From Balanoglossus misakiensis (taxonomy: Eukaryota > Animalia > Hemichordata): DNA of 64,000 nt. Where the stretch lies: NCBI GenBank assembly GCA_040954595.2, contig CM082587.2:8049705-8113704 (forward strand), given 5' to 3'. The translations under genes were made by a program, and so were the position numbers. Under the pieces are notes generated by a model, which had not been told where the DNA came from, did not search any database, and worked only from the letters and a program-made list of their open reading frames with translations. Shown here piece after piece: positions 5,481 through 61,017 of this stretch. Position 1 is the stretch's first letter. Every line of letters begins with the position of its first letter.

Positions 5481-6339
5481 GGCGGTATGTCTTTTCAAGG
5501 TGTGTGAACCTAAATCGGTTAAGTATAGTCTTGTGGCTGGCATTACATTTGAAGACGCTTTTAAGGTGTCTCAAGTTGTTTCTTTCTATTTTAAATATTT
5601 TATTCACAAGCTGTAGGTGGCAATCCACCACTACAGTCATGTATGACGCTGACCATTTGCAAGATGTTTTGTGGTGGAATTAACTTGCAGCTCATTTCCC
5701 GGTGTACTTACAACCTGACATCAAAACAGATCATCAAATTCTTGTTGTACCGGTACAGTGTACTCCTAAATCTGTACCGGGCCTCTGTTTGGATGTCTGT
5801 CTAGCTTGACTTTAAAGATGGAGCTGACCATTCCAATCTTTACCTGTTGACATTAATATAATGTAACCATTATAGATGGATAACTTGATATAGAGGTTCA
5901 TGGGGTGACTCTAGTCAGACTTCTTCAAAATTTACCTATTTCTCCATCGTGAAATTTCAGAATCCAGTAATGATTTTTGTGGTATTTATGCTTTGACCTT
6001 TGGTGGCCATTTTCCAATGATTTTTCATCATTACTGAAGTACACCATTGACTACCTGATCCAGTTTTGTTGCAGTTACATTAGAAAATAATTCTGATGAA
6101 ATGGGAGTGACGCCATCTCATTTGTGGTATTTTGTGATATAATTATAGTAATAACCCTTTTTGCAGTCTGGTACAATTGGCAACATAACTCGCCTAAGGG
6201 CTCAATACTACCAGTATACATTGTATGTAGCCAGTTGTACAGAAAATTAGTGTACCGGTATATACCTGCCTGTAGTAGCTTATTGCTTAAATATCTTATG
6301 AGAAAAAAACAAAGCATGATAAGATTCCAAATGTAAACC

Positions 6340-7158
6340 TGAACGACGACCCATGGAATTTTTGAGTTCTCTGAGCTCAGCTTGAATACAATGTATACAA
6401 TGCTTTGATGCCATCAAAATTCACCCTTATATTTTCAGCTGCCACACAAGTGTGCATTTCTTGTATGTGGAGTATTAATACATGTACCTTGTTTTCTTTG
6501 TCTTTGTATAAGACTGACGATCCTACTCTCACCGTCTTGTCAGATTTGGCATCCACACCGTTGTAGGTTGCATATCTGCCATTTCCCATGTCACCCATGG
6601 TTATAACTTTGGGTCTTGGAAGAAGTCCAGTACCTGTTGGTGGTGTATGGGAAAATCCCTGGTTGGTGTTGTCTTGTTGTGATGGTGTTTGGTCTCGGTG
6701 CGGGTGGACCAGTTTACCTGGAAATTTAACTGCACCGGCTTCTTTGCCAAACAGGGTGTTTGTCAGTTTGTCACTGGTACATCCTCTCTATCATCAACAT
6801 CAATCTTGTCTACAACCACTCTGCCTTTATTATCAATCTTCTGTGAGTGCTCTCTATCGTCATTATTATCATCAGTCTTCCACACAGCCTGTCCATCTTC
6901 ATCCTCATACTTTTGATCTTTATCGAGAGTCCTTTCTACAACCTCTGTATCTTCACAATCAGCACTGATTTCAACATTATAAAGCAGAATTTTTCTTTTC
7001 TTGAATGGTAGGTTCTTTCCTGTGAAATCATCATTTGTTGTTGGTCTACTAGTATCATTTCCCTTCCTTTTGATAGATCTTGTTGTACTTGCAAGTTCAA
7101 ATTCCTGACTGTTGTAACGTTTCGGTTTTCTGCATTTACGCCGTGGGCGTTGAGACAT
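6340..7158 (-). pseudogene. Unidentified spliced coding remnant with basic NLS-like N-terminus and acidic tract, probably transposon-associated
   Basis: Acceptor TTTTCAG directly before MSQRPRRKCRKPKRY; D/E-rich ORF; frameshifted continuation (6377-6598); no family recognised. Confidence 0.35.
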
Positions 7159-7429
7159 CTGAAAATAAAATTGAAAACAGACTTCTGAATACAAGGTCAG
7201 CAAACACCTCATATTATATGATTTGCTATTTGAACTGTGAATATACACTCATCAGCAATATTAAGAACATTGTATTGTACACAGTTGCAAGATGAAAGGT
7301 AGCCAACTGTGTGACTGCATATATGTGTAATGGGGGCAAATCTTACAAATTCCTTTGTCATTATATGATAATCATGCTAAAAACCTATTAAAATCATTTT
7401 TCACTTATTTCATGCTAGGTAATATTTTC

Positions 7430-7631
7430 AATAGAAAATCTATTGACGGCTAGTTCAATGGAAATCATCTGTATAATTCTATAGAAAATAATATTCTATT
7501 TATTTTCTGTTGAAAATTAATAGAAGTCATCTGTAGAATTCTATAGAAAATAAATTTCTATTGATTTTCTATTGAATTCTACACGTTTCTATAGAGGTCT
7601 ATAGAGTTCTATAGAACCTTTTTCGTAAGGG
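7430..7631 (-). mobile_element. Probable terminus of a CMC/EnSpm-like DNA transposon with subterminal repeats
   Basis: Multiple (T)CTATAGAAAAT repeats in both orientations ending in TTTTCGTAAGGG (reverse complement CCCTTACGAAAA); partner end not found. Confidence 0.45.
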
Positions 7632-10140
7632 ACATGGCCACGGACACTTCCGGCATAGTGACTGATCCGCTGCAATGGCAGAATGGAGACGTTTTGACCG
7701 GAACGGTTGATGTCGGGAGATTGGCATTCACTGATGAACCGGCAGCTGACAGGGTTGGTTGATGGCTAGTTGATACCAATTGGCATCCACCACAGATTGA
7801 TGCCATTTTACTAAGAAACACATGTTTATAATAATAAGTCTTTATTACAGACAACCAAGTTTCCATACCAGTTATTTTTAGACATTTGAAATGATACCAC
7901 TGACTACATTGGTCACATGCTACACCAGTCCTGACTGTGCGACTGCATACTCCACATGGCCATGGAGACTTCCGGCGCTTTGACTGAACTGTTGAAGTGT
8001 CAGAGTTGATACGTTTTGACCGTGTTGGTTGATGGCTGGTTGATGTCGGGAGATTGGCATCCACTGATGAACCGGCAGCTGCAGTTGAGCCCGCTTGTGG
8101 TGACCGAGGTGGGTCGGAGTGTGGTTGAGGATGTAGTGGATCATGGGTAGTTGCATTGGATGTTGTACATTGTACTTGAACTTCTTGAATTATTGCTGGG
8201 ATGACATGTTGAATGTAGAAAGAGTCCAGGTTCGCTTTAACTTTTGCCCAGAAAGATTCGTTGAATGTCACTGGAATGATGATCAGTCCTTTGGTAGTGA
8301 ACACAACACAGTCACAGAGATGAACACCTGTTTCTGCCATTTGTACTTGAATCTGTGTATAATATTGGTGACTCTGAGATAATACGTAATGTCCTTGATC
8401 GTTGGTCTTTATATACGGAATGTCAGTTCCTGCAGCTTCTTGTGGGGACCTCTCTCTTGCTGTGAATGGACACTTGCACTCCAGGATTCGGGGCTCACAA
8501 CAATCACATGATACATTTCTGTCGGCTGACGCTCCTACGTGTGCATTTCCTGGGGCAACTTTCAACCCACATCGCTTTACGACCAGATTTTCTGTGGTGC
8601 TGCGACATGGCTTCTGTGTACCTTTCTACTGCTTCATCCTCTTTGTCCCGCCCCCATCTGATGGCTGGTGGAGGATTGGTGTGATACCACTGACTGCATT
8701 GGTCATATGCTACACCTGCAGTCCTGACTGTGCGACTACATACATGTATTCCACATGGCCATGGAGACTTCCTACGCTTTGACTGAAGTGTCAGAGTTGA
8801 TACGTTTTGACCGTGTTGGTTGATGGCTAGCTGATGTCGGGAGATTGGCATTCTCTGATGAACTGGCAGCTGCAGTTGAGCCCGCTTGTGGTGAGGTGGG
8901 TCGGAGTGTGGTTGAGGTTGTAGAGAAAGGGTGAGGTTGTAGGGGTTCATGGGTAGTTGCACTGGATGTTGTAGCCTGAACTTCTTGAATTATTGCTGGG
9001 ATGACATGTTGAATGTAGAAAGAGTCCAGGTTCGCTTTAACTTTGCCCCAAAATGATATGTTAAATGTCACTGGAATGATACGTCCCTTTGTAGTGTACC
9101 GGTACACAACTAAGTCAGAGATGAACACCTAGCACTAATAGTACAGCATTTTGCATGAAAATAGCAAGGAACGGACACTTTCTCACTGTTCTGCGAGAAC
9201 CATGCAAGAACAGATCCTCCCAATGAACACATTGTCATCTCTTTTGATGGCCACCACAGATGATAATGTACAATGACTCTTCCATCAGCTGAGGCACCAA
9301 TGTGAGAGTCTCCTGGACGAACTGACAATTAAGCCACTGTCCGCTGTACAACTAAATTTTTATGGCATGATGACATTGACTATAATGTATCTCTCAACAG
9401 CTATGTCTTCATTCTGTCTTCCCATCGTATTGGTGGTGGTGGATTTTTGTCGTTTATTTTGGAGTGTCGATCCTTTCATTGCATTCATGATTGTTCTGCA
9501 GGGGGTGTCTGACCTCTTCTCTCCATGAAGCGGTGAACAGCATGTATCTTTGATGCTGTCAATCTGTGTTGTCTGCGCTGTCAGGCATCAGCGCTACTCT
9601 GTTGCAGGCCGATGTTGTTGAGACCGCTGATGCTTGTTCAGAATCCATACTCTGTCGGATATTGTCTCAGAAAGTTCGGGGTGTGTCATCAGGTCATTTT
9701 CAGCCATGCATCTAAAGCCGCCACTTCAGTTACTGTTTCTGGATTTCTGGTACTGGTTGCCTCTTCAGGGAATTCTTCACATTCATGCTGTCTCTACTTC
9801 AACCTCATCAGACAATGCATCATGGGTTATTCCTGGACTGGGGTCAGCAAGGGCGGGGATCAAATGCACAAAAGATAGTGTCCCACACTTCCTGAGGATC
9901 AATCTCTGGATCACTTGGCAGGGCAGGTCTGAAGGGTACTTAGTCTATCTTGCCATGTTTTGGATGGTGTAAATCAATTTCATCCACAGTACCAGGCTCA
10001 GTCTTCTCTGAGTAGAAGTCATTCCAGGCGCATGGGAGGTCTGTACATGTATTTGGTTGGTTAACACCCAATTCCGTTGCACTTACTATTTTAAATAGTA
10101 ATGCACCAATATGGGTACATGCTTCACCCAACCTGTAACA
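7609..10140 (-). mobile_element. SWIM zinc finger - YqaJ/lambda-exonuclease - PHD finger gene (ISL2EU-type accessory ORF), partly duplicated and pseudogenised
   Basis: LGEACTHIGALLFKI...CTDLPCAWN (SWIM region); RLTAS, GASAD, ILECKCP, HQYYTQIQVQM (YqaJ); CGVC...VACDQCSQWYHFKC (PHD); second frameshifted YqaJ-PHD copy at ~8685-9600. Confidence 0.82.
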
Positions 10141-11456
10141 TATGAGAAGAAAGTCAAAATAAATACAGCTCAGAGAAACCAAAATAGGTAATTGGCAATG
10201 AAGTCAAATGCTCGCAAGTATAAATAATTGAAAGTATGACTACATGTAAATTCTTTAATGTATCACAACAATGACAATAAAACACTGTAAAAAAAGTTAC
10301 TCTTGCAAGTCGGTCAAACTGGTTTTGAAGGGCTGATAGCAACCTGCATGTTCGTCAGCTCCCCGGGCAAATTTCTTACAAGCAAGCCTTACTAAAGCCA
10401 AGGTTCCAAGGTCGCCACGATGACTATATTCAGTTGTTTTCTTTGACCTTGGTCAACCTCAAGTTGTGTGAATACAGATTTGGCTGTCATGAACTAATTA
10501 GGTGTGAAGGCCACAGAAATTAAGTAAAAAAAATGAGTAGGTTGTTTGTCGAAATGTTGTGAGCTGTTTGAAGTTGGCACGAATTAAAGTTTAGCAGCAT
10601 CTCCTGGCAATGTACTTCCAGTAGATGGTTAAAATTTGCACTCTGTGGCAGCATAGGGTCAAGTCCAGGAGAGAACAGCCATGGCAGAATCACTGGTGGT
10701 AATCTCTGACCTCGACTTGATGTCATCTAAAATCACAAGGACTGTATCCAGAGTGACCTTTGCTGAATTTGTCGGCATCTCATGCAAGCCAAATCAGAAG
10801 TACGCCCCCTCCATGTTGCGGCCAGTAATTGTCCCATGGGCCTTGCCGCTGAACTCGCTGGTATCATCGGTGTGCAGGGTAGTATGTTGCTTGCTGGTGT
10901 ACCGTGTACTGTGGCCAGCTGATGTTCTGCCAGCCAAAGTCGCCGCAGGTTTAGTTTGTCCACTGTTGATGGTGTTGGTACATGATTTGGTGTTTTTGGA
11001 GTGATAACGACACACACTGATTACTGGACCAATATGGCTGCTGGGAACATGATGTTGCAGCAAGGCATAGGGCATCTTGCCTTAGAGGTGTTTGCTATAC
11101 GATGGTATAATTTCGTTTGATTTTTTCTACAATTGACGTCAATGACTGACAGCCAATCCGAAGAATACTTTACTGTGTAATAATTTTGTAATTGGACAAT
11201 CAACAATATGCCGATGTATTGTAAATTTATAATCTTTAATTTCTTTTCTTTCTCAAAGATGTATAAACTCTGTAATTTCTTGTCTTGAGCTACGCCTCTC
11301 AACCAGAAATAAAGCCTTCTGACTCCCACTACTTCCGGTCTCAACGAGTCTATACTTTGATAGATCCATCTCACCTCTTTGCAACCGCAAAGTTAAATTG
11401 TCAGCATTACAAGCTGTAACACGGTATTTTTTCGAAACTCTTAGGAATGAAACCCT

Positions 11457-13996
11457 GGCGGAAGCTATACGCACGGTGTTTTTTGGTAGATTTTTTTTGG
11501 AGAATTGAAATAGATCGGCTATGACTTACTACCGGGGTAGAAAATAAACAGCTCACTGATGATTACTCGGTTTTTAATTAAACTAGAAGTGAAGCTTTAT
11601 GACAGGATGTAGATGGAATGCGAATTGCTTAATTTGGGAATTAGCATTCTCAAGTTCGTATAAAATAAACACTGAGTCACTAATTGTTCGCTGGAGTTTA
11701 TGATAGTCGGAAGCAGTTGTGCAAACATTTCACAAATACTTTTACAAAGATGTCGCAAGAAAACCGTGCATGTTTTCAAAGAGTCACATAATTGCACCCC
11801 GACTTTTGATTGTTCTGCGCTAATCGGTATCAATTAACACCAAGTGTCCCAACTACGGAATTATTCAATAGACAGCGTTTTTCGCTGAACAAGACAACTT
11901 CGACCCGATCAGACGTGAATTTGTGTTGCTCCGATTCCGTGCCCAAAACAAAATATTGATTACGTTTTCACTGATGTAAAAATAAACCACACGCAACCAT
12001 ACACATGTATTTAATATATTTATTTAAAAACCTATGAACTAAGTAAAAAAGAACTTAACAAAAACATAATAAAATTAAAAGTCAGTTAAAAGTCATGAAA
12101 AATAAAAGTAAAAACAAAACAGCTGAATGATTCCTCGCCCTGACTACTCTACCCTAACCCTAAGAAAAACACAATAAAATTAAATGTCGCCCTGACTACT
12201 CTAATCCCCCCCTTGAAATTTATTTTTGAATTCGGCCAGCGCCTTCTCTGCCATTTTCTTCTTTTGGCTGTTTTTGGCTTTTTCTGTCAGGTACTCGTGG
12301 AAACTGTTCTTTATTCCAGTGGGCACAAAGTTAATCTATAATGTAATCTTTTGCCACGATGTGTGAACACAGTGAATATTCTGGTCCCAGTCCAGAAAAT
12401 TTAAAATAACGTCCAAATGATTGGTCAACCGTAATTCATGTTTATAGTCAAAATAGTCCTACCTGAGTACCCTTGTTTTTTCTCAACCATAAAAAAATGA
12501 AAGTAGGCGTTTTGGGCCGGCGTCAGCTTCCCGCTTACACTGGATACGTAATGCCTTTCCAGGCGGTCCTTCAGGTCGTCGTCATCTATATCGTCCAGTG
12601 TGTTTGGCACCTACAAATTGGTCAACCGTAATTCATGTTTATAGTCAAAATAGTCCTACCTGAGTAGCCTTTATTCTTGTCAATCATAAAAAAATGAAAA
12701 TATGCGTTTTGGGCAGGCGTCAACTTTCCTCCGCTCACGCTGGACACATAATGCCTTTCCAGGCGGTCCTTTAGGTCTTCGTCGTTGATGTCTTCCAATG
12801 TGTTTGGAACCTTGGGTGGTGCCGACGTGGAAGGCAGGATGGAGCGAAAGACATTGGAGAACTTCTTCTTTTTTGGGGGCTCCGGTATGTCGTCGTCGCT
12901 TTCCGGCGCTGCCGCAGCCCGTTTTGATGCCTGGGCCTGAAGTTGATCAATCAGGCCCTCCATCTTCTCCATTTTTTCCTCCATTTTCTGCATCCTTTCC
13001 TTCATTTCTTTCAATGTGTCCACAGTAAACTCTTTCAGAACGTCAAAGGACGTGGTCATTTCCATATGGAAATCGTCAAATTGGTCTTCTTGGTAAGCCT
13101 GAAATCAAAAATATATACCACCAAAATTAAAAAGTAACCTTCACAGAAAAAAAATATCAATGATATAACATTATTAATTTGTTTACTCACCATTGTAAGA
13201 ACGGATAAAACTGGTAGATAGTATAAAACTGGAAAAAAAAATTCTGAAATCTGAAATGGGAAAAACGGTAGTATTCAACAATTAATCTCTTTAAGTCTAC
13301 ACAAAATGTAGTAAACTATCGTTAACGCGAAAGTTGGCGCTGAAGAAATTCACACGTCATCATATCAGAGTTAAGTTTTTCTCAGTGGATTCTGAAGTCT
13401 TTCACGTCGCATCAAATGAGCATCTATGTACTGTAAAAGGTGAAGTTCAGGCGAACAATAAACTAAGCGACAGCCAAATAAATGCAAAAATCAAAGATCG
13501 CGTAATTTTTGTATCAGTTGCCCGGTTTACATGCAAGCTGAAAAATTCAAATGGTCAACAAAATACAAAAATAAGATGTAAGTCTTTACCTTGGATACAC
13601 CCATGCGCACAACAGAACGGATAGGAGCTGACTGAAGTCTCAACTGTAAACACTAACCCTAAGAATGCATGATGCCAATTTGCATGGCAAAGCCACAGGA
13701 AAATATTGTGTCCAATCATAGCACACGGAGTTGTTTACCATTCCAAAGTTAGACTAGCCCAATAGTCGGACGGCCCGTTTCCCGTTACGTAACAGCCTAA
13801 CCCTGACCTTTGCCCTGACCGTCCGCTTATAGTATGCCGAATTGTCCGTTTATATACGTTCGGCATACACGCGACGGTTTCACCAACGGCGGAAGCTATA
13901 CGCACAGTGTTTTTGGGGTAGATTTTTTTTGGGGGGGGGGGGGGGGGGGCGAGGAAGAATTGAAATAGATCGGGGTAGAAAATAAAGAGCTCACTG
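11457..13996. repeat. Pair of ~100-bp direct repeats (11457-11558 and 13888-13996) enclosing a 2.3-kb unit
   Basis: GGCGGAAGCTATACGCAC...AGAATTGAAATAGATCGG...GGGGTAGAAAATAAA.AGCTCACTG present in both copies. Confidence 0.85.
12622..13193 (-). CDS. Orphan two-exon gene, ~159 aa, coiled-coil plus NLS; C-terminal part tandemly duplicated at 12425-12612
   Basis: ATG|GTGAGT at 13193-13185; acceptor TTTCAG|GCT at 13099 gives MAYQEDQFDDFHMEMTTSF...; heptad MKERMQKMEEKMEKMEGLIDQLQ; PPKKKK. Confidence 0.6.
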
Positions 13997-13999
13997 TTG

Positions 14000-15573
14000 G
14001 ACAACCTCAACCGACAGCTCTTCTTTCTTGACCCGCAGCTCTTCATTTTCCTGACAAAGGTTATGGAGTTGTTATTGCTTTAAACTCTCTCCTTGTGACT
14101 TGATTGCTGTCGCTGACTGACATCTGTTGACACTTGCTGCATATTCAATACTCCTCCTGGTCAGAGGGTCGCTTCAGTTTCTTGCTAAAGTGCTGCAGCA
14201 CGGCCTTGGTGGAATGCCATTAATGTCTTGCCCACTTCCAGCTGGGTGTTGAATTGCATTTTGATGTTCTCCATCTTGTTGACATGTTCTCTGAATTGGC
14301 TGTGCAACTTTGTTGGCCAGACTGTCGGTAGAAATTCCTCTTTGTAGGTTACTGCCATGTTGTTGGGTTCTTGTACCGGTGAAAGCCAACTCAACTGCCA
14401 AATTATGGAAGCACAGACCTGTGCTCAGACATGAACAAACAGCTGGCTCAGGGTACAAAGTGATTATATGTACCGGTACTCTGTTGCTAATGACACTTCG
14501 CACCGTAAATGATTTCGTCTGAGGTGACAACCCATTTATGCAGCTGGTCTCCACAGCCAAATTTGCCAGGGACATTTGGGACATGCGGTAGTTTTGTCCT
14601 CTTTCAACTTTTCCGGCAGAGATTAGGAGATTCTCCCTTGGTGTGCTGAATAATACTCACAATTGGCCAAAAATTTGGAAGGTCAACATAACCAACGTTC
14701 AGCCTTCCTCATTGCTTCAAACTCTGGCTTCAGATCGTAAAGCCGAAACCTTTAGATAGTGGGAGATTTGTATCTTTAACAAAAAGTCCCAGTATTTCCT
14801 TGGTTCCTGAGGCCAGCTCCTTCTGTGCTATTATGATTAACAGGTGTGGTATTTTCCAGATAAAGTCGTCGTGGTGCAGTGCCAGTTCATAAAGACTGAA
14901 TATTTCATTGTTTGTTATTTTTCTTTCTTTTCTGGCTGCATGAACTGTGTTTGCAACCTGCTTCAGATCTCTTGGTCTGTGACCACTTGCTGGCATTCTT
15001 TCTTGAAATTGATCATCTTGAGCTTTCTGGCTCTGCTTTTGTTTGTAGATATTGATAGGCTCTCTACCACTGTCAGCTTTGCCTCTTTAATCATGATATC
15101 ACACTTTTACAGGAATGAATGGTTAGTTGTTTACTTGCCTATCACCATGTTTGGAATCGTTGGCAAGCGTGTGATCACCAAGATAATGCAGGAGATAGTA
15201 GAGCTGTCAACGTCTTTGGCCAATTTTATTGGCTTAGAAGCAATACACTGGCTGCTTGAAACCTGACAAAGAGTCCTTCTTCCCATTAGGGTCCTTGAGA
15301 TAATAGTACCTCTTTAAAATGGCAGCCAGTGCCCACCTCTTCCACTGTCACCTATGGACACCCATCGATATTGGTCAAATCTGGAGTCCATGGCCATTTC
15401 TTCTTTATTTCGTTTTTGACCTGTACATGTACACTCTTCCCCTTTGGTTTGACAGCGCCGGGCTCGTTCATGATGTTTTCGTTATCATTCTGAGAGCCAA
15501 GAATGTCCTCAACCTTGCTCAAGGAGAAGTCTCTCTGCCTATCATTAATAAAATGTGTATTTGTAAGTGACAT
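14000..15573 (-). mobile_element. Mutator/MULE-like transposase pseudogene with internal deletion
   Basis: HYLGD...KHGD...PF and PRDLKQVAN N-terminal motifs; C-terminal SWIM CSCLSTGLCFH; DDE core largely missing; frameshifts. Confidence 0.65.
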
Positions 15574-16669
15574 CTGAAAAAAAATTACAGTCGTGTTAAA
15601 TAAAACCTATTTATGGAAACATTTAGAAGCGTTTACAACATTTGCTTTTTTACTGTCGTTGCAAGGAGGTGCTGAATGTGGTGAACGGACAAATGAGACA
15701 ACACTCTGACATGAAGTTAGGGTGGCCGGTAGTGTGGTGTTATGGCAGCCGATGTAATGTTTGGGTATTTTGACCACATAGAATGTCACATTTGAGATCA
15801 TTTCGATAACCCACCTCGAATCTGGTCTTCTTCTGTTTGACGTTTTCGAGAACGTCGGTGTCCCCGAGACGACTCAAGAGGTTTCGTACTAGCGCTGGGG
15901 CATCCATGAACGTTGTGAGATGGATAGAAAGATCGCATCTCCCCCCACTTTCCACATGCCCCATCATGAAACCAAGGGCGAGATTTATTTTAAATTGATG
16001 GGTTTAGTGCCTATATATTATATCCAGATAACATATGATTGTAAATCTGTAAGGTGATATCCGCCTGCTGTTTGAAAATTGTACACATCCAGCATGGGAT
16101 TTCCTAAACGGTGGCAGGACCTGATGTGTAACAAGTTTTTCACTGTATGTTGGTGCAATGTCTCCATCGTCGACACTGTCCAACACAGGCTCAAAAAGAT
16201 CAACCGAAAGAACGCCGCTGTTGCTTGGCTGACCACCACCACCAATCTGTGGTTCTATGCTTCCTTCAGCAACATCATCATCATGTCATCATTGCCATCA
16301 TCCTCTCATGGTGACTATGACTATGTTTCTTCAGTGCCTTGAATGATTTGAAAACTCGTTTGCACACTTGCACATCTGAAAGACACTGAGACAGACAGCT
16401 TTTTGTGTATTTTCAAATGGCTGACATGATGTGATTTTCTGTTGAACACCATGTCACAGATAGTGCATTTGTATTGGGTGTCCTGACGATGATGTACATT
16501 CCATGTTGTCCTTTTGGGAGAAGGTGCGGTCACAACTTGGACACTGAAACTGTTGACTATAACGTATCATTTCATTTTCGCCACCACCGTTACCTGTACT
16601 TTTGACATCATGTACTTTCTTCTCGTGTCTTGCCAAGTTGTCCTTGCGTGTAAAAGTAAAAGGCTCTCT

Positions 16670-16915
16670 ACCTGATACAGGTGCGAGGCTGCCCAGGGTA
16701 TGAAACCAAACATTTCTCGAGCCTAATAACTGACGGAATATTCTTTCTAAGTCTCATGCGATATTGCCGGGTCCCGTTGAAAACAGAGGGCTCGTCGTTA
16801 AACACGCACTTCCGTGTCGCCAGCACCGTACCATACCCCGACAGAATGTGCTGGACAAAGTTATCGTCCAGCTCATTATCGATGGAAAGAGCCGTTAAAA
16901 TAAGTTGTCCCGTAC
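16670..16915 (-). mobile_element. Tx1/L1-type ORF1 (ZCCHC3-like gag) fragment
   Basis: ELDDNFVQHILSGYGTV...FNGTRQYRMRLRKNIPS...VSYPGQPRTC, truncated at the first Cys of the zinc knuckle. Confidence 0.75.
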
Positions 16916-17709
16916 GTAGTTTGAGATCTCCAGGTCGTGTCTTGCGAGATCAAAGACAACAATCTTCTCCTTATTATAAGCATATGAGACGTCCTTACTA
17001 GCAGTTGTATCGGCCCAAAATGCATTATGCACGCACCGTAACCCTTGAGCCTGTTTCCCTGTTCATCAACGATGAACATTATCTGGCGGTCGTTCTGATT
17101 CTGCAACTGCTCAAATGCTTCTCTCCGCCAAGGTCTTAAAGGCTTTCCTCTGGAATTTGGCCTTCTTTGCTTCCAGGGTCTTTCTCTGGACTATATTGTC
17201 TGCGAAGTGTTGCACTTTGTTCTGGTATAAATAATAATGCTCCCCATGCTTCTCTACAAGTTGATCCTCATCAAGGTCAGGGTTGCTAAGTCCTTGATCA
17301 ATCAATCAAAAACATTTATATGGCGCCAATATCCAGAGAACTGTTCAGTGGCGACCAACTGGACTAGGTCTCTTCTTTGGCCGGGTTTGATGGACGTACC
17401 CTATTCCTGGAAATCACCGCCTTTACTGCAGAATTTTCGGTTGTCTACCGGACTGCAACGGGCCACTTCGCTTTGGCGCTTCAGTTGCAAGTACTGCCCT
17501 TGTAGGTGAGGTACTTGCTTGTTCTCGCCGACTTCCTTGCCTATGATGAGATACTGCAGCTTGTTTAGGTTGGCTAGTATAGCGTCGTACTCTTCCTGGG
17601 TCCAGTTATTCAGCATAAAACAAAAGCTCTTCCCGCGAACGTCTGGTCTTCTTCGGTACTGGCCGTATTCTCTTGGGAAGCCATCTCGAGTTGTTGGTTC
17701 AGCGTTCAA
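16915..17709 (-). pseudogene. rep: Endogenous CRESS DNA virus replication initiator (HUH endonuclease + SF3 helicase), decayed
   Basis: Motif I FCFMLNN, motif II IGKEVGE...PHLQG, motif III NRKFCSKGGDFQE*G, GQRRDL, LRPW...QNDRQIMFIVDEQGNRLKG (degenerate Walker A), AYNKEKIVVFDLAR (Walker B); premature TAG at 17401-17403 and frameshifts. Confidence 0.92.
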
Positions 17710-17802
17710 TTAGATATGAAGTGGTGCGCTCACAACATTATGCGCGGTTGAGCGTACGTATAGTGTACATTGTAATGCAAATTAGAGGTCAAACGTGAGG
17801 TG

Positions 17803-17845
17803 GCCACAGGTCAGGTGTGGGCTACAATTACCCCACACCTGTGGC
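17803..17845 (+). promoter_or_regulatory. CRESS-type rolling-circle origin stem-loop
   Basis: Perfect 10-bp stem CAGGTGTGGG (17812-17821) / CCCACACCTG (17832-17841), extendable by GCCA/TGGC; loop CTACAATTAC with nonamer TACAATTAC (1 mismatch to NANTATTAC); AGGT repeats just upstream; ~100 bp from the rep start. Confidence 0.82.
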
Positions 17846-20519
17846 AAGGGCTAGCGTGACAATGCCCGCCGTGCCCATTGCCCCCGATTCTTTTGTTTAC
17901 GGCTTTACTATTGGTCTGTAGCCTATCCTTTGGAGTGTTGTCCTCTTCTTCCCGCTTGTCTGTATGCTTGTCATCTTCTAGTTCTAAGGTATCGTCACCG
18001 TCTTCGGCGCCAAACCACATAGGATCTCCCCCGTCCACGAAGTCTTGTTCGAAGTGCCATCGAATTTTCTTGGCATGTCCTTGCGTGTAAAAGTCTTACA
18101 GCAACTGGCACACGACAGGCAGTTTTCACCATGGACGCTGTTGATATGGCGACATAAATCACCTGGTCTGGTAAATGTGCGAGTACAGTGGGGGCACGTT
18201 GATCGGCCTGCATCATTTTGCTCACCCTCTTCATGGACACCCAGGCGATTGGTGGTCTCACGAAGGTCCTGCAGATAAAATAGAGGATACATGTATACAC
18301 AATATCGGAAAAATTTGAACAAAAACATGGCGAAAAGTAACAACTCACCTCAGATAATGAGTACTTTGCCAAAGATGAAGACATAGGCTGTAGAGCTGAA
18401 AGAATACAAAATTATTCTATAGTTATACATACAATTTGTGTACATACAATTTTCCTGTCCATCTACTGGTGAATGTTTTAAAGGTAAACTAGTCTGCTTG
18501 GTGGACTTAGAAATGCTTAAATAATTGCACAGAGTTCTACGAAAACAAATTTAAAATTAATAATTGGATAAGAAGAGTTCAATACTTAAACACACTTCTT
18601 GTATATTTGATTATGCAAAGAAATGACACAGACACATGTGAGTTTGGCTTAAATGTGCCCGGGGGGGGGGGGGATGAGCTCACCTCTGACTGAGTGTTGT
18701 GGCAGGTCTGGGATGACACATGGTACTCAAGGAGAGCCAGCCACCACAGAGGCACCAGCCCAGACGTCATGGCAGTTGCCCTCCAAGACACAAGCCACCT
18801 GTTTGGCTTGGGCTGTGGAAGGTGTGCGTGTTAACCAGCTGGTATCTGCATGCACTGTAGTGACAACCCCAAGCTCCTTAATTTGATTTACTTCATAACA
18901 GCACGAAACAGTATACATAGGTGTGGGTGGGTGGGAGAAGATTGCTGCTTACTCGTCACTGCCACGTGGTAAAAGGAGTGAGTGGTCTCTGTCAGGCCTA
19001 CAGGAGACTTCGGTAACAGTAAATAAATACACTTGATGAAAGTTCTTGTCCGTGTCACTTCCCACATTAACACTATCTATACTAATGTATAATCGTAATA
19101 TTAAAATTACCCTTGTGTGTTAATAACTGAACTGGCAACTTTAACATTGTACACACATGACCATTGGCAAAGGGTATGATTGCTTCTCGTGCACAGTTGT
19201 CAACTCCAAACACCCTGTAATATGAATTTATAGCACATGTGAAAGATTTCAAGAATGATCAATGTGTGTCATAAATTTATCTGTGTGTATCATCTTAGTC
19301 TAGAATCTATCCGTTCGTAGTCGCATTCACCCTACTACCGTCTTGGAACGCCTAACCAAAATCTAGTAAGGCCATAAAAATGGTAATTTGAATGTGAATA
19401 GTCTCCAACTGAGCATTAATTCTTGACGATTTTTGTCTGACACTACAATTGTTTAAAAGAATACAATTACGTTGGCATCGTCGAAAGTAGATATCACTGT
19501 GCTATACCTACGTGTACAAGAAATTAGGCCAGAGGGTATATGGGTGGGTTTTTTGTAGGCACATTAAGAAAACACATCATTGTAACAGTATACGCATGAC
19601 CACTGGTGTATTCAGCTGATTGCTGATCAATTATTTTCGCCGCAGAGAAAATTCAAATGAGTATCCTGGTTGTATCGCATCAACTAATCAGAGTTATGTT
19701 TCAAACACCTAACACGTGTCCGCAAAAATAGGAATGTACACCGGCTATTTACAGACTGTCCAGTCAGCTGATGTCAAATGAATGAAGGAAGGAAGGAATG
19801 TATGAATGAATGAACGCATCTACAACGCACGCAAAAAGGAATGAAATAATACATGGGTGGATTCTTCACAAGTTGACATACGTGGCGTCTCTTCATAAAC
19901 CGTGTAAACATGTCAGACATACCGTATGTTAGTTATGAGTGAAGTGATCATTGTAAATGGAAAGATATTATTGATATTTGCGTATGTTTACCAATGCAGA
20001 GATTTCAGTGCCATGTAGCCCAACATTTGAAAGCATCTGACGTATTTTTATCCTGTGACACGTTTCCAAAGCCCCACTCTACCATCATTGTTCTGGTAGA
20101 GAGACGTGGCATGGATATGGTGGGAGTCATTATTTTTCACGGATGGTTTATGCCGTCAGTGGGATTCTGTCCAACGCCCACGATGTTCTGGAATTTCTCT
20201 TAGTAACGCAAAGTTATTCTGTGCAAAACGTACATTGGTGTTTCTTTTCTGTTAAAGAATCATGCATCAATTCAAAAGGTGACGTTTTCTCCGGAAAGAT
20301 TGGTCGTATAAAATGATTTTTCAATTACAGAATCTTTGACACAGCTTAGGAAGCATATCACACATAAAGCCAATATCTGAAATGGTGACTTCACTTGTGC
20401 GTGGTGCCCACATGGTTTTACCCCATAAATTAAAAGTGAAAAATTGGGACATAATGTATCTCAGTGGGCGATGATCTTAGTCCGATCAGGCGTTCCCTAA
20501 TTAGATAAAGACAGGACAT

Positions 20520-20577: not shown

Positions 20578-23500
20578 ATGAAGGTAATTTTGCTGACGAT
20601 TTTCCTTGTTTGCATGTGTTTGGTTCAGGCATTGTCTCCCCATGAGCAGAAGAAGGCCATCCGTCAATTTTTCGGTAAGATATCAAAATAATATCACGTA
20701 TACATGGTAAAAAATTTATGTCGAATAATTTTCCGTAGTCCACTGAGATACCGGTAGTTCTGACATTCACTGCGGAAACACCAACACAAAAATGTGCAAC
20801 TTTCGTACAATTATTATTATTATTATATTATAAACTTTATTTCGGACTCATGGTCCATTTTACAGTAGGACTAATTAGTTGAAAGGGAAAAAAAATTACA
20901 TATATATCTAAATGACAAAAAGAAGCTTATTCCAAAGGCTCAAAGTGTCAGAATTAAAATACAATGTATCATGCACTTGCCGCACAATGACATTTTGGCA
21001 GTTATGTATTTGAAGATATTGCCAAGTACAATTTCTTGTGCGCAAATACTTCCTCTCCCATTCTTTTATTATCAAAATAGGCCCATGGGGGTTACAGCAG
21101 TATGGAAAGAAACAAGTAGGAGGTAAGGGAACGTGACAATTATCCACTGTTGGGAATTAACATCAGCAGGATGGTTTTGGGAAATGGCACTTAACACACA
21201 CACACAGAATTGTAATACATATATTGAGAGAAGATCTATCCTATCTAACATCAGAATCAACATTAATATTTAATATAATTATATAATCCCATAACATTTT
21301 TCTTTATTTAACGTCTTCAAGTTAATAAGACAAATACATTGCTAACACCTGTAAATGTGTACTGGTATCGTAGGCAGAACTGGCTTTATGGCAGCAGAAA
21401 TGTGTCAGTGCCGGTAGAATTATATTTGCTTTGCTTGTGTGCGTGTGTTTGGTTCGGCCATTCATCTTCATGGAGGTAAATTGCATGAAACGATAACATT
21501 AATAATCTTCGCTGCCTTTAAAATGACTATGATACCGGTAGATCGGGGATAATAGATTCTTCATAAAACTACACGTAATTATTATGAAAGTAGTCAAGCT
21601 GACAATCAATAACCATATGCTTTCATGTGGTGTCAAATAAACTATGTCTTACTATCAGTTAATTACGGTGGCCGATACCAACACTGCTCTGCTAATTATA
21701 CCTGCTCTGCTGTCGACCTGCTCTGCTATGCTAAGTCGACCTCCTCTGCTAACTTAATCTGCTCTGCTAAGTCAACCTCCTCTGCTAACTAAGATAGAAA
21801 GTTCAGACAGCGTCAGTCTGATAGTTACGAAATTAATTATTAAAACGTTCGTCGGCCTGTATAAAAAAGATAGCATATGATGCTTATATATACCTACTTT
21901 TGTACCAAAGAAAACTATGAATAAAGATACCAACCTGTTTCAGGTACTTCGAGCACCACATGGAACCCTGTGAGGCAACGCCTCGATGTAGTCAATTTCC
22001 CCCCTCTTAGGATAAGAACACCAACACTAGCCTACAACATGCAAAACCAAAGAGAATGCAGTTAGTTAATCATGGAATCCAGACTTAAACATTTAACTAA
22101 ACCAACATTATTCTGTGTCCTTCTCTACCCTAAAGTAACATTAGTGATACATTTGTCTTATAAATGATGTTTTAATGAGATGTTTTAGATACCGAAAAGG
22201 GATAACAGTTGTCCAAAGAACATTTGCATAACAGCAACAAGTAAGCAAATTTCTATTTTAAAATTGTGTTAACATATGATGCTAACATTTATTCTAGTGT
22301 TAAAATAATAGTAGAAAAAAATACATACAACAAAAACTGAGCAACATTTTAATTTTGATTATGTAGGAATGTGTAGTCCCATGGTTCAAAATATACAAAA
22401 GGATCTAAAAATAATCAAGGCACTTTCTATCTCACTTTATAACAGGTAAAATATTTGTTAACTTATTTTTCATGCAAAAAACAATGAACATCATGCAGGT
22501 AAATTAAACTTATTATATTCATTAGCCATGCATGCAGTTGGAAAAGCAATAATCATGAACAGAACACAGGGACCAAAGCATACTTTGACAGTTTGAGGTG
22601 GCTTCTTTCTCCTGGTATTTATTTTTTTAATCTCCAAAAATGTCCCTGTAAAAAAAAACAGTGGACATGAGCTTTATGAACCTACTTTACCACATTACTC
22701 ATCTCGTGACCACATTCGTGAAAATCGCGTCAAGGACACGGTGGGTGAGTTTTGACCAATTCCACATTTTCGCAGCTAAATTGCATATTTTTGGTAATTA
22801 CAACTTCATTTGAACAAAATCCCATCTGCAGCCACGCATAAATCAGCACACCAAATATCGAGGTGATACGCTAAGTGGTTTTCAAGTTTTTGATGTGGAT
22901 GGACATACACACATCCATACAGTCACAACCGATCCCATAATGTCCTATGGTATTAAATATACATATACCAAATGGGACCCAAAAACAGTTGTATACCTCT
23001 TCTTTTTCCCTTTCCTTCCCCTTTTCATATTGACTGGTTTACCGATACTTCTGAGCCAGAGACTTTCTTTGTTTCAATTCAAGGTTACCTAAACCAGACA
23101 CTTTTTTTTTCTCAAAATGGACAGTTTACTTACAAATCAGATGTGGTTACTGAACATGTGTTCTTAATTAATATAGAAAATGTGTATCTGTTTCTGTTAA
23201 AGACAGCATACTTACTATTTTGTCTAACTGGCAAAGGCGGCGTTGGTGGTGTGGGCGTCAACAGTTCCTCCCCCAAGTACTTCACGAAGTTTGCTGGGAA
23301 TGACCCAGCAAACTCCCTATCTCTCACTTTACCAATAAGCCATCCTCTTGGTTGTTGAGGGGTACCATGGAACTTCCATGGTAACCCCTCAACTTCAATG
23401 ATATCATCAGTTTTCATAGATATTTCACTACTGCTCTCTGCCATAAAAGTATGGCATACTCTGTACAGGAACATTATTTTCTGTTGGGAGATGAATAAAG

Positions 23501-26500
23501 ACATAAGACAACTTACAAGTCACAGAAACAGAGTGATCCATTAGTTTCATGACTTGATTATAATTATGCTTGGTGTGAATCCTGCTTGCTGATTGGCAAG
23601 AGCCAGGGTTTATATTCTCGACAAAAAAAATTGACCAAGAACAGTGAATAATTATAAAAAATGGAACACATACAAGAGATCACACCTTACTGGATGTGGG
23701 ATAACATGGATAAAGTCGTGCGACTTTAGAAATTCTATAACACTTCGCTCGGTGATTATTTCCCGCCAAATATACTAATTTTCACGTGAGAGGTCCTGCA
23801 CCCAAATACCCTCTGGCAGCCGTTTAACCTCTAAATATAACGTTTAGCCAATAGTCAGTCTAAGAAAAAAGACTCCTTGAAAAATCTTTCACGATATTTA
23901 TTTCATCATATTGGGCTGAACGGATCAGCAAATTTCCACAGAAAATGACGGGCAGCTACAGGCAGTAATTAGTAGGACCGCAAATAAAGTTTTGATTTCA
24001 AGGATTGGAAAGTGGGGAAACAATTGCCTCTAATTGCAGACGTTGTCGCCGCCTACAAAATCCGTATCTTTGAAACAAAATTTTATGGATAAGATATTCA
24101 TATATTATTTCTATTATCGCTTACAGCTTTCTCCGTTCGCCCAAATCAGTGTTCAAACTTCAGCAAGTCCGGCCGCATGTGAGACGAGCGTATGTTTGTT
24201 CGTAAGAAATGTACTCCAGTACTTCCGGTTAACTCAGCAGAGCAGGTCGACTTAGCATAGCAGAGCAGGTTGACAGCAGAGCAGGTATAGTTAGCAGAGC
24301 AGTGTCGGTATGGGCCACCGTAGTTAATACATGCTGACATTAATACCAAACTTCTGCAGATTATCAAACGTTTGCACCAGAAGAAACTTCTATTATCTTC
24401 TATTAATAACAATTGATGATCTATTTTCTTTCTTTCTAGATTGTTATTGTACTTGTAAGTATTACTCTGCATATTTTTTTTCAATTTCGAAAGTTTTCTG
24501 TGTCCATGTATGCACATAAAATAACTGGCACATCGTGCGATAGCAGCCGACGCTGGACTTAGAGATGGGTCAAGAGATGATGATTTAATTAGACACACAA
24601 TGTAAATTGCTCACTCAGTTAATACAAATTTCAACACATGATCAATTTTTAAACGAGGTGAACCTGGTATTAGCTATGTTTCATCTGCTCAGTCTCTACA
24701 GATCCGTGGTATGACGGAAAGTATTATTGTGCACAAAATAACTTTTAAATATATGCAATGTATGTATGGGAATTCTAAATGACAAAGTATAATTGAATAT
24801 AAATGAAAGTTGTATCCCTTTGTTTCATTATACCCTGTAGTATATTATAAAGTAGGGTAATGTGATAAACCATTGAATTGATTATTATTACTTTCAGTCA
24901 ACAAAGTTTTGCTTGGTTGGTTGGTTCACTATGTAATTTAGTTTCAATTCAACTTTGTTTTTATAATCAGCTGAAGAAGGCGACATTCGCTTGGTAGGCG
25001 GTTCGTCCGAGACAGAAGGCCGCGTCGAAATCTATCATCAAAATGAGTGGGGTACAGTTTGCGATGACGCCTTCGAAAACATTGATGCAGTCGTGGTGTG
25101 TCGTCAACTTGGCTACACGTAAGCTTATTTTTTATTTATATAGCACAGAAATTGACATCATCTGAATATAACGAGAACATTTGAGGAGTGGTTTATTTTC
25201 TTCGTTCTTACGCCTTGTTTCTGTCTTTCAATTGGCTTGCTGGCAAATGTATCATACAGGACCGGCAGCCTCAGACGAGATGACACTCACCTTTTAAGTA
25301 CACGGCCACTGTCAGACACGTTATGTTTCTTTTGATTTACAGGGGAGGTAGTAGTCTGCCAAGTGCATCTTTTGGACAAGGAACGGGCCAAATATGGCTA
25401 GATGATATTGGATGTAGCGGGAGTGAGAGCAGCCTAAGTGACTGTACACATCCTGAATGGGGAACTCACAACTGCCAGCATAGTGAAGATGTCGGAGTTT
25501 CATGTGAAGGTATTTACTTTTTGTTAACAATATTTTTGAAGTAATATCATCTTGTGTAACAGGCAGTAATGCAATGTGGTAACTTTATAGCTTATTCGTA
25601 TTTACTTTTTACAAAATGCTAATGAACCATAACAAGTATCTATAACGTCTTCTTCTCTTAAATTATTTTTATTTACAGTAGGCAGTCCATCAACAGGTAA
25701 GATATCCAAATTGAATGTGTAGCATTTCAATGTGTCATGGTCTGAACGAAACAGCGTCAGCAAAGAAGTTGCGAATTGTTCAAATGAATGTGATATTTTC
25801 ATCAAAAATTCAAGCCTATTTAAAAAAAAAGCTTTTTCCAGATCTTATTATATAAGTTAAATTAATCATTAATCCTTTTGGTCATCAAAGTTTTTTTTCG
25901 GTGGTGTACTGTTGTTTAGTTACAATTCAGTTTTCAATTGGCTTTTTAAAATCAGCTGAAGAAGGCGACATTCGTTTGGTGGGAGGTTCGTCCGAGACAG
26001 AAGGCCGCGTCGAAATCTATCATCAATATCAGTGGGGTACAGTTTGTGATGACTACTTTGAAGACATTGATGCAGTTGTGGTGTGTCGTCAACTTGGCTA
26101 CACGTAAGCTTGTTTTTTATTTGAATAGCACAGAAATTGACATCTTCTTAATATAACGAGAACATTAGAGAAGTAGTTTATTTTCTATGTTCTTGCCCCT
26201 TGTTTTCTGTCTTTTTATTAAAAATTTTCCCAGGTGAATACCTTTGGTGAAACCTGTTAATAATACACAGACAATCATGAAAATATACGTGCAACCTGCG
26301 GAGACAATGTTAACGTGACATTTGTCAATTTTGATTAAACTCGGTAGAATATAACTTTGTCTACGATGACATATGATTCAGATGGCGTATTTCCATCTGT
26401 ACAGTGAGACCCTGCCAAACGATATCGAATTAACTTGAAAAGATGATACATCATATTTGCTAAGGTGTGAATTGTAATGTAACAAACGTTATGATCAATG

Positions 26501-29500
26501 ATGTATATTTAGAAGTTATAAACAGCTAACCGCAGTCGCAGACAGGATTAGACTCTCGTTTTAAGTACACACAGAAATGTCACAGCCACTGTCAGACACG
26601 TTATGTCCATTTTATTTACAGGGGAGGTAGTAGTCTGTCAAGTGCATATTTTGGACAAGGATCGGGCCAAATATGGCTAGATGATATTGGATGTAGCGGG
26701 AGTGAGAGCAGCCTAAGTGACTGTACACATCCTGAATGGGGAACTCACAACTGCCAGCATAGTGAAGATGTCGGAGTTTCATGTGAAGGTATTTAGAGTT
26801 TGTTTACCGGTATAATAGTTTTGAAGTAATATCATCTTGTGTATCAGGCGATAATGCAATGTGGTAACTTTATAGCTTATTCTTATTTACTTTTTACAAA
26901 ATGCTAATGAACCATAAATAGTATTTTATAACGTCTTCTTCTCTTAAATTATTTTTATTTACAGTAGGCAGTCCGTCAACAGGTAAGACAATTCTTCATA
27001 TATGTTTTATCCAAATTGATTGTGTGGCATTTCCATGTTTTATGTTCTGAACGAAACAGTGTCCGCAAAAAAGTTGCGAATTTTTTGTAAATTTACGTTA
27101 ATTAATGTAATATTTTCATCAAAAATACGAGCCTATTTAAAAACAAGAACATTTCCATGATCTTATTATATAAGTTAAATTGATTATGATTACTTTCGGT
27201 CTTTGAAGTTTTGCTTGGTTGGTGTACTGTGTTATTTAGATTCAATTCAGTTTTCAATTGGCTTTTTAAAATCAGCTGAAGAAGGCGACATTCGCTTGGT
27301 GGGAGGTTCTTCCGAGACAGAAGGCCGCGTCGAAATCTATCATCAATATCAGTGGGGTACAGTTTGTGATGACGCCTTTGAAAACATTGATGCAGTCGTG
27401 GTGTGTCGTCAACTTGGCTACACGTAAGCTTATTTTGTATTTGAATAGCACAGAAATTGGCATTTGAGAAGTAGTTTATTTTCTTAGTTCTTACGCCTTG
27501 TTTTCTTTCCTGAATGAATTGAATACCTTTGGTGAAAACTTGTTAATAATACACAAACAAATATGAAAATATACTGACACTAGTAAGACAATACTAACCA
27601 CATGAAATTGGTCAATTTGAATCAAACTTGTTACAATATAACTTTTATCATTGAAGACGAAGTCCTAACAAAATCATTCAGTCCGTGTGTTTCCAACACT
27701 ACAGGGAGATACTGGCAAAAATATCGAAATAACTTTAAAATATGATACATCTCATTGTTTGCCATGGGTTATAAAAATAAACAAACATATTGCTCAATAT
27801 GTGTATTGTATAGCAGTTAAAATGTGTGTATACATATGTAGGCTTGCCATAGCAACTGTGTCATACAAGAAGCACAGTCGCAGACGAGATGACACTCACC
27901 TTTTAATCAAACACAGAAATGTCACAGCCACTGTCAGACACTTTAAGTTCATTTTACAGGGGAGGTAGTAGTCTGTCAAGTGCATCTTTCGGACAAGGAA
28001 CGGGCCAAATATGGCTAGATGATATTGGATGTAGCGGGAGTGAGAGCAGCCTAAGTGACTGTACACATCCTGAATGGGGAACTCACAACTGTCAGCATAG
28101 TGTAGATGTCGGAGTTTCATGTGAAGGTATTTAGTTTTTGTTGATAATAGTTTTGAAGTAATATCTTGTGCAACAGGCGATAATGCAATGTGGTAACTTT
28201 ATAGCTTATTCTTATTTACTTTTTACAAAATGCTAATGAACCATAACGAGTATTTTATAACGTCTTCTCCTCTTAAATTATTTTTATTTACAGTAGGCAG
28301 TCCATCATCAGGTAAGATATCCAAATTGATTGTGTGGCATTTCAATGTGTCATGGTCTGAACGAAACAGCGTCAGCAACGAAGTTGCGAATTGTTCAAAT
28401 GAATGTGATATTTTCATCAAAAATTCAAGCCTATTTTAAAAAAAAGCTTTTTCCAGATCGTATTATATAAGTTAAATTAATCATTAATCCTTTTGGTCAT
28501 CGAAGTTTTTTTTTGGTGGTGTACTGTTGTTTAGTTACAATTCAGTTTTCAATTGGCTTTTTAAAATCAGCTGAAGAAGGCGACATTCGTTTGGTGGGAG
28601 GTTCGTCCGAGACAGAAGGCCGCGTCGAAATCTATCATCAATATCAGTGGGGTACAGTTTGCGATGACTTCTTTGAAGACATTGATGCAGTTGTGGTGTG
28701 TCGTCAACTTGGCTACACGTAAGCTTATTTTTTATTTGAATAGCACACAAATTGACATTTGAGAAGAAGTATATTTTCTTAGTTCTTACACCTTGTTTTC
28801 TTTCCTGAATGAATACCTTTGGTGAAAACTTGTTAATAACACACAAACAATTATGAAAATATACTGACACTAGTGAAACAATACTAACCACATGAAATTG
28901 GTCAATTTGAATTAATTTTGTTACAATATAACTTTTATCATTGAAGACATAAGTCCTAACGCAATAATTCAGTTGGCATGTTTCCAACACAGGGAGATAC
29001 TGGCAAACAATATCAAAATAACTTGAAAATAGGATACATCTCATTGTTTGCCATGGTTAATAAAAATATACAAACGTATTGCTCAATATGTGTATTGTAT
29101 AGCAGTTAAAATGTGTGTATACATATACACATGTAGGCTTGCCATAGCAACTGTGTCATACAAGAAGCACAGTCGCAGACGGGATGAGACTCGCCTTTTA
29201 AGTACACACAGAAATGTCACAGCCACTGTCAGACACGTTATGTTCATTTTATTTACAGGGGAGGTAGTAGTCTGTCAAGTGCATCTTTTGGACAAGGAAC
29301 GGGCCAAATATGGCTAGATGTTATTGGATGTAGCGGTAGTGAGAGCAGCCTAAGTGACTGTACACATCCTGAATGGGGAACTCACAACTGCCAGCATAGT
29401 GAAGATGTCGGAGTTTCATGTGAAGGTATTTAGTTTTTGTTAACAATAGTTTTGAAGTAATATTTTGTGCAACAGGCGATAATGCAATGAGGTAACTTTA

Positions 29501-60500: not shown

Positions 60501-61017
60501 TCATACAGGGTTAACGTTTATTACATATAGGGTTAACTAATAACATATTTTTCATGTATAATTAACGTTATTTCATGTAGAATTAAAGTTTATTACCTAT
60601 AGGGTTAACGTTTATTACATATTGGGTTAGTATTACATATTGGGTTAAGGTGTTATTACATATTGGGTTAGTATTACATATTGGGTTAAGGTGTTATTAC
60701 ATATTGGGTTAGTATTACATATAGGGTTAATTATTACATATTGGGGTGATACAGTCGGTCTGGTTGCGCTGGTGACACTTTTCGTGCTCACCGTGGCGGC
60801 TGGCATAACCGCCGTGCTGTTGCTTGCTTCCAGCGACGATGAGGGCGCCGGATACACGTACTCCAGGGCGGCCGTGGCAGCTGACAATGGCCAGTGTTCC
60901 CAGGTGGGAAGGTATGGCAGTAAATGTACCATTAGCTTTTAAATTCGTATATTCAGAGACCACCATTTTAACGGTAATATACAAGGTTGGCTTAGAAAAG
61001 TCCCAGCAACTTAACAC

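Follow-up and report, generated by a model that had tools for sequence, protein, structure and literature searches.

A decayed CRESS virus rep gene in Balanoglossus misakiensis, probably captured together with LINE-like DNA

The window, by which we mean the whole 64-kb stretch of Balanoglossus misakiensis contig CM082587.2 that was analyzed, contains a broken rep gene, the likely origin hairpin of a single-stranded DNA (ssDNA) virus of CRESSV4/5 grade and a likely fragment of a LINE ORF1, all between two copies of a 19-bp duplication. We consider it probable that this composite sequence derives from what was likely one germ-line capture and has been inherited as dead DNA. The first-pass annotation had placed rep at 16915..17709; the gene does lie there, but the span is slightly too long, the probable start codon being found in a third frame at 17684. 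The features, listed in the sense of rep, are as follows.

18095..18270, minus strand: upstream half of host repeat-family C2H2 zinc-finger coding sequence (Pfam zf-C2H2, E=1.3e-5)
18076..18094: upstream copy of the 19-bp exact direct repeat, a likely target-site duplication
16658..18075, minus strand: composite insert (1,418 bp), bounded on either side by the 19-bp duplication
17842..18075: 234-bp upstream segment, probably of viral origin and either intergenic or an acidic reading frame in the sense of rep
17812..17841, plus strand: origin-like hairpin with a 10-bp stem and the loop CTACAATTAC, on the strand opposite rep
16916..17684, minus strand: rep pseudogene, in pieces and 3'-truncated
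17356..17637, minus strand: HUH nuclease piece, with motif I, motif II, motif III carrying Phe for Tyr, and a GQRRDL linker
17297..17353: host repeat of 57 bp inside rep, with a tail of short units and present in high copy number (from depth and loose ends)
17150..17296, minus strand: oligomerization-domain piece, in another frame
17053..17145, minus strand: helicase piece with LRPW and DRQIMFIVDEQGN, reaching as far as the broken Walker A
16916..17041, minus strand: Walker B part of the helicase (AY..., VVFDLAR, NY), ending at the truncation; 21/42 identical to the related Rep P0008
16658..16915, minus strand: ORF1-like gene fragment, presumably of L1/Tx1 type, from the RNA-binding region and ending just before the first CCHC knuckle, in the same sense as rep
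16639..16657: downstream copy of the 19-bp exact direct repeat
16454..16638, minus strand: downstream half of the zinc-finger coding sequence (Pfam zf-C2H2, E=1.2e-6)

In the sense of rep, the insert thus reads 234-bp stretch, origin-like hairpin, rep and ORF1-like fragment. The 19-mer at its ends occurs only twice across the 64-kb window, and the longest match was at most 14 in 2000 shuffles and at most 13 in 2000 real zone pairs. On translation, the upstream flank gives one complete finger followed by the two cysteines and the Phe of a split finger, and the downstream flank gives the Leu and the two His of that finger, with further fingers after it. The 19-mer was also considered as a product of tandem zinc-finger repeats; this origin was ruled out because the flanks supply complementary halves of one C2H2 finger. 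The zinc-finger flanks are multi-copy in the host, as seen from their high depth in public contigs, and the zinc-finger gene seems to contain a short intron with GT-AG ends at about 18270-18340. The 19 bp agree with the target-site duplication expected of LINE-mediated endogenous viral elements (EVEs). The 3' poly(A) and mRNA-like extent of a LINE-retroposed EVE were not found: the last part of the insert is an interior piece of ORF1, and the insert takes in the hairpin and the DNA upstream of it, beyond an mRNA-like extent. The insert ends carry neither a poly(A) tail nor the canonical L1 cut motif, so that LINE involvement is putative.

Several other elements were observed in the window. Positions 6000-18350 consist of long, decayed, mostly minus-strand coding DNA resembling mobile elements, including a YqaJ-like exonuclease with a PHD finger (7609-8625), a duplicated 196-bp segment (12420-12812) and a SWIM-like CxC..CxH motif (near 14400). 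Inverted repeats of 99 bp (21659-21757 and 24229-24327), 2.5 kb apart with an SH3 exon between them, possibly delimit a non-autonomous DNA transposon. They are followed by an array of about six diverged 1.3-kb units (24950-32300), an Ig-domain receptor kinase-like gene with tandemly duplicated Ig exons (37600-43400, minus strand), pieces of a PKD/REJ-like gene with REJ, HYR and C-type lectin exons (46700-54200), and a foldback-like element with long inverted arms of 18-41-bp TAACCC-containing tandem units (58320-60780). The Ig, REJ, HYR, C-type lectin and SH3 domains of the exons around the insert point to an animal, probably an invertebrate.

All Rep motifs quoted in the first-pass annotation were recovered on the minus strand within 16916-17625. 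FCFMLNN (17625-17605), IGKEVGE (17544-17524), PHLQG (17511-17497), FCSKGGDF (17433-17410), LRPW (17139-17128) and DRQIMFIVDEQGN (17091-17053) share one frame, and VVFDLAR (16960-16940) is in a different frame from LRPW and DRQIMFIVDEQGN. A profile of intact relatives matched the place of rep with iE 8.5e-34 and 5e-14 and gave no other match below iE 2 in the 64-kb window; this motif set is not a product of chance. The suggested check against Pfam profiles gave a match for one domain only. The nuclease piece matched Viral_Rep with E=1.2e-5 and 25.9 bits, just short of the cut-off of 26, but the helicase pieces had no match to RNA_helicase, a profile that only 4/11 of the intact relatives match. 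The nuclease piece also matched solved circovirus Rep domains (E about 3e-6) and, in a HMMER search of 1.84 billion proteins, 790 at E<=0.001, whereas a word-index homologue search with the same piece gave no match.

The gene is disabled at many points, as had in part been noticed at first reading. HUH motifs I and II are present; motif III has Phe where 171/175 intact Reps with a nanovirus-type helicase have Tyr, and we read this Phe as decay of the catalytic Tyr. A stop codon (17401-17403) lies inside the nuclease piece, an in-frame gap of ~12 codons separates motifs II and III, the pieces are set in different frames by further frameshifts, and a 5' frameshift probably follows the start codon. 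Walker A had been described as eroded; it is indeed damaged, but by a frameshift that cuts through it and removes the lysine core rather than by substitution, and the Walker B region is kept. At 16916, rep ends about 50 residues short of its relatives, with motif C and the Arg finger beyond the truncation. The adjoining 258-bp ORF1-like fragment matched P0265, a protein with zf-CCHC (56%, E 3.6e-15), and weakly RBD_ZCCHC3 (E 0.13). Depth and variant contigs indicate that it is multi-copy in the host; its L1/Tx1 label is one that we assume from domain architecture.

To assess whether the insert is inherited, we used contigs from three public runs of one sample in one study, two of which contain 41% and 33% of the sampled words. 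The contigs designated X2 bridge the left end of the insert (16409-16725), the joint between rep and ORF1 (16853-17326) and the right end (17800-18181), at a depth of 31-36 vs 36-38 for nearby flank contigs; X1 depth was less tidy, with 64-138 on the viral part vs 48. Three X2 contigs of the viral part differ from the window in 31/1,315 letters (2.4%), the listed flank contigs in 0-1%, and the two copies share only some of their breaks. The X2 copy is therefore another allele or paralogue and not the window's own reads. An empty-site joint was not seen among the contigs of this one sample, which weighs neither way. In each of the three runs, contig depth over the 57-bp repeat within rep rose to thousands, and loose ends occurred on either side of it; within the 64-kb window, this repeat had no second copy. 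Because X2 contigs reach 30 letters into it from each side, one short of the threshold for bridging, it is likely older than the split between the two copies. We take it to resemble the 3' end of a LINE or SINE.

The insert is inherited and is not contamination, because a divergent copy bridges both ends at flank-like depth. This result, together with a duplication that splits a host zinc finger, upholds the earlier reading of a germ-line CRESS record. That reading had named contamination as one circumstance that would overturn it. CRESS viruses are, according to parts of PMC6069186, common contaminants of invertebrate assemblies, and the contig comparison covers one sample; an exogenous virus misassembled into a host scaffold would nevertheless not account for the split finger, the many disabling lesions, the host repeat inside rep and the bridged junctions, so that we attach hardly any probability to this explanation and regard it as effectively refuted. 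An HUH Rep in a eukaryotic chromosome beside other mobile DNA might also be a domesticated Replitron- or Helitron-like transposon, mobile by means of its own Rep. We consider this very unlikely, given that the window holds one copy, at an X2 depth like that of single-copy flank (X1, as above, is less clear), that the hairpin is internal and not terminal, and that the Rep nests among viral Reps in trees. Furthermore, HUH strand transfer is not expected to give a 19-bp duplication.

The nuclease and the helicase of the window Rep resemble different virus groups, as the first-pass annotation had proposed. Against nanovirus/alphasatellite and circo/cyclovirus references that we labeled from their sequences, the nuclease scored 53-57 bits to circo/cycloviruses vs 10.6 and 29.9 bits to nanoviruses and alphasatellites, and the helicase scored 23/18 bits to the latter vs <=1 bit to the former. 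The suggestion that this combination is unusual did not hold. Among the best 150 nuclease matches, 99 were at least 240 aa long, with a pattern-based Walker A of nanovirus type in 32, of circovirus type in 48 and of neither in 19. An alignment of 11 nanovirus-type Reps, which were picked by likeness to the window and all share its helicase motifs, gave a profile that scored about 116 bits with the nuclease and oligomerization domains of PCV2 vs 69 bits with a nanovirus nuclease, and had no match to the PCV2 ATPase. With this profile, 3,767 of the 7,997 proteins scored reached E<=1e-30. Three of the 120 matches listed were classified to genus, and all three belong to the Anicreviridae (order Mulpavirales, which is also that of the Nanoviridae); one of them, Otevirus soksuewis, is the Palaemonetes shrimp virus, assigned to CRESS4 in a part of the PMC5923481 supplement. 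The nuclease was closer to circo/cycloviruses than to nanoviruses/alphasatellites in 3/3 Anicreviridae and in 58/58 Reps with a nanovirus-type helicase, the latter count being biased upward because these Reps were collected via the window nuclease or the relatives' profile.

The three classified Anicreviridae alone suffice, by their scores, to mark the domain mix as ordinary. As these and the 58 tested Reps score like the window, a circovirus-like nuclease with a nanovirus-like helicase is, on sequence comparison, the standard build of the CRESSV4/5 grade and not a special hybrid. The split was already reported in 2011 in sections of PMC3198968, where nanovirus-like Reps group with circovirus-like ones in N-terminal but not in C-terminal trees, and in parts of PMC5923481 CRESS4 and CRESS5 are presented as coherent groups with a basal position relative to nanoviruses and alphasatellites. 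The domain mix teaches nothing new. Among the related sequences, locus L003 has the same motif mix as the window Rep, L001, L002 and L004 are distant and uninformative, and P0049 (664 aa) is a complete nanovirus-type Rep fused behind about 300 unrelated residues.

To place the two domains, 429 Reps were reduced to 349 by removal of near-duplicates, and 101 were aligned. The related Reps P0155 and P0008 ranked 4 and 5 of 349 for the nuclease and 1 and 2 for the helicase, and the top-20% matches common to both domains numbered 14/69 vs 13.6 expected, i.e., were at chance. In the helicase tree, the window was on the nanovirus-type side (100/99 branch), with the P0155/P0008 group (93/74) and outside nanoviruses plus alphasatellites (99/96). 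A CRESSV5-like clade with an FxDIPR-like Walker B (100/100) excluded it; the CRESSV5 label of this clade was inferred from one row in a part of the PMC5923481 supplement. Within a 43-row helicase set, the window paired with P0147 (94/88), showing that the nearest neighbor shifts between taxon sets. Approximately unbiased (AU) tests gave p=0.043 (marginal) when the helicase was forced into nanoviruses plus alphasatellites and p=0.0003 when it was forced with P0011/P0062. The nuclease tree was largely star-like and paired the window with P0011/P0062, two Reps whose helicases are of circovirus type. The eight best matches of the oligomerization piece were Reps with a nanovirus-type helicase, though weak (best E 0.002).

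The separate trees that had been proposed thus divide the domains between two sets of neighbors but do not establish separate histories, and they bear on the possibility that the donor Rep was a lineage-specific recombinant, with a nuclease from kin of P0011/P0062 and the oligomerization and helicase domains from the CRESSV4/5 grade. The nuclease was sister to P0011/P0062 in 3/3 trees (support 97/87, 86/83 and 77/87), the helicase cannot join that pair, shared top matches of the two domains are not enriched, and such swaps occur often, parts of PMC5923481 giving about 71% of unclassified Reps as chimeric. We nevertheless regard a recombinant donor as rather unlikely. Grouping of the nuclease with P0008/P0155/P0156 was not rejected (p=0.156, and 0.248 with the mixture model), support dropped under the mixture model (the last of the three values), and the window nuclease is decayed and long-branched over 91 columns. 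The donor was in any case probably not a true circovirus: forced grouping of the nuclease with circo- plus cycloviruses, although narrowly not rejected (p=0.071), was absent from the best trees. Such a recombinant would be one more of hundreds of known chimeras.

With regard to classification, the window has neither a circovirus-type helicase (GxxGxGKS, DDF) nor a nuclease of nanovirus/alphasatellite type, and its helicase lies outside the nanovirus plus alphasatellite clade. It does combine the circovirus-like nuclease score, nanovirus-type helicase and FDLxR Walker B of Anicreviridae/CRESSV4. The three named Anicreviridae did not form one clade in any tree, and the window did not join them; in the full-length tree, it was amid nanovirus-type Reps and outside the group holding 2/3 of them. 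The window rep is thus likely of CRESSV4/5 grade, next to the Anicreviridae; PMC9615429 and PMC8780604 contributed nothing to its placement. The proposal of an unclassified lineage gains weak support from that position, but the full-length tree leaves the placement loose on the nanovirus-type side.

The nature of the donor replicon also depends on the hairpin and the DNA upstream of it. The hairpin nonamer matches TAGTATTAC at 7/9 positions and differs at 2/9, and 22/26 nt match the origin of the virus contig L014. Folding gave z values of -2.9 on the plus and -4.9 on the minus strand, with a weaker value (-1.7) when a wider stretch was folded. In related loci, TAGTATTAC was the commonest nonamer (26/64 hairpin matches), and 25/64 hairpin matches were opposite rep. 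The 234-bp stretch had no match in the Pfam, related-locus or related-Rep comparisons, Rep ends included. No capsid gene was recognizable in these 234 bp. An alternative donor would be a circle of about 1.3 kb, a satellite or segment, that encoded Rep but no capsid protein and was opened in the helicase region; the acidic frame would then be the C-terminal tail of Rep. A frame in the sense of rep is open for 88 codons, is 20% acidic and stops at the hairpin base; 21/159 related Reps have tails of at least 50 residues, several of them acidic; an Arg-rich cap start was not found on the plus strand; and the size would fit. We hold this donor to be improbable, since the acidic frame has no sequence match to any Rep end, the cap gene of the virus L281 begins about 350 nt from its hairpin, beyond the 234 nt kept here, a cap-like gene lies opposite rep in 53/80 related loci, and the nonamer is opposite rep as in the ambisense L281. 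Decidedly improbable is the compound reading, namely, that such an alphasatellite-sized circle of an animal virus system was the donor and that a LINE enzyme stitched its DNA to ORF1 in one event. If true, the germ line of an invertebrate would have preserved a satellite-like CRESS replicon, and the insert would directly document the capture of an ssDNA virus with the help of a LINE. Parts of PMC6186406 already describe Rep-only circles obtained from invertebrate samples.

For the preferred reading, that of a single capture of viral and LINE-like DNA, we propose the following course. The rolling-circle mechanism of Rep is established; in the living virus, Rep would have nicked the nonamer hairpin via the motif III Tyr, and the SF3 domain would have unwound the circle. 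The 19-bp duplication points to a staggered break, for which a LINE endonuclease was probably responsible; viral DNA joined to LINE ORF1 DNA would have filled this break, giving rise to the duplication. The viral template was presumably genomic DNA and not rep mRNA, because the hairpin and the sequence upstream of it came along. Integration catalyzed by Rep at its nick site was considered and ruled out, because 234 bp lie between the hairpin and the upstream end of the insert. The position of the ORF1 piece, at the 3' end and in the sense of rep, suggests that LINE machinery or LINE cDNA was present at the break; we hold LINE-assisted capture in one event to be about as probable as simple end-joining, whether of two separate fragments or of one already joined. 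The subsequent decay is seen in the stop, the frameshifts, the deletions the loss of the catalytic Tyr and the Walker A lysine, and the insertion of the 57-bp host repeat.

Among known viruses, the Anicreviridae (Mulpavirales, Cressdnaviricota), represented by Otevirus soksuewis, Uewvirus yahnais and Delphin virus 1, show the same motif set and score pattern as the window and have in common with it the Walker B context AYxxExIVxFDLxR...NY. Unlike them, the window rep is a dead chromosomal fragment and is nearer to unclassified Reps with DRxILFVVD (P0155, P0008, P0147). L281, the unclassified 2,467-nt ambisense circle that encodes P0008, is a top-5 match to the window for both domains and carries its hairpin immediately before rep, the nonamer being on the strand opposite rep, as in the window. 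It differs in its intact 297-aa Rep, its cap gene and its canonical TAGTATTAC, and is about 45-50% identical in the conserved pieces. Two further Reps of CRESSV4/5 grade, P0196 and P0066, were found on contigs of 670,825 and 61,630 nt and are probably further endogenous copies in other eukaryotes. The hosts of CRESSV1-6 were not known when these groups were defined (a section of PMC6668415), and those of the Anicreviridae are given, in parts of PMC11945456, only broadly as invertebrates and vertebrates. A verified copy in the germ line gives direct evidence of entry into animal germ cells by the DRxILFVVD subgroup of the CRESSV4/5 grade.

Endogenous CRESS or circovirus-like rep elements are described in sections of PMC3198968 and PMC6069186 from lancelets, molluscs, crustaceans and other hosts. 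Like the window, they are rep derived, divergent and outside established families; the window differs from the elements described there in that it retains the hairpin and both insertion ends, with the duplication and a split host motif. In the part of the literature covered, we found no report of an element of Anicreviridae grade that combines a duplication with a piece of LINE ORF1, and we make no claim of absence. According to parts of PMC3205384, ssDNA EVEs arise when viral DNA is end-joined, and LINE-1 accounts for duplications accompanied by poly(A). With LINE-1-mediated EVEs such as EBLN, in the account given there, the window has in common a target-site duplication of L1-like length; it differs in its lack of poly(A) and its inclusion of non-mRNA viral sequence. 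With its ends intact (19-bp duplication, split finger and ORF1 fragment), the insert is a useful case for the study of ssDNA virus integration. In CVe-Carnivora-4, as presented in parts of 10.1101/207399, a rep fossil is likewise joined to non-LTR retrotransposon DNA; that element is circoviral and present in 10-20 copies, whereas the rep in the window is of CRESSV4/5 grade, seems to be single and adjoins an interior part of ORF1. Taken together, these comparisons identify the insert as a well-documented further example of the already known endogenous CRESS rep elements.
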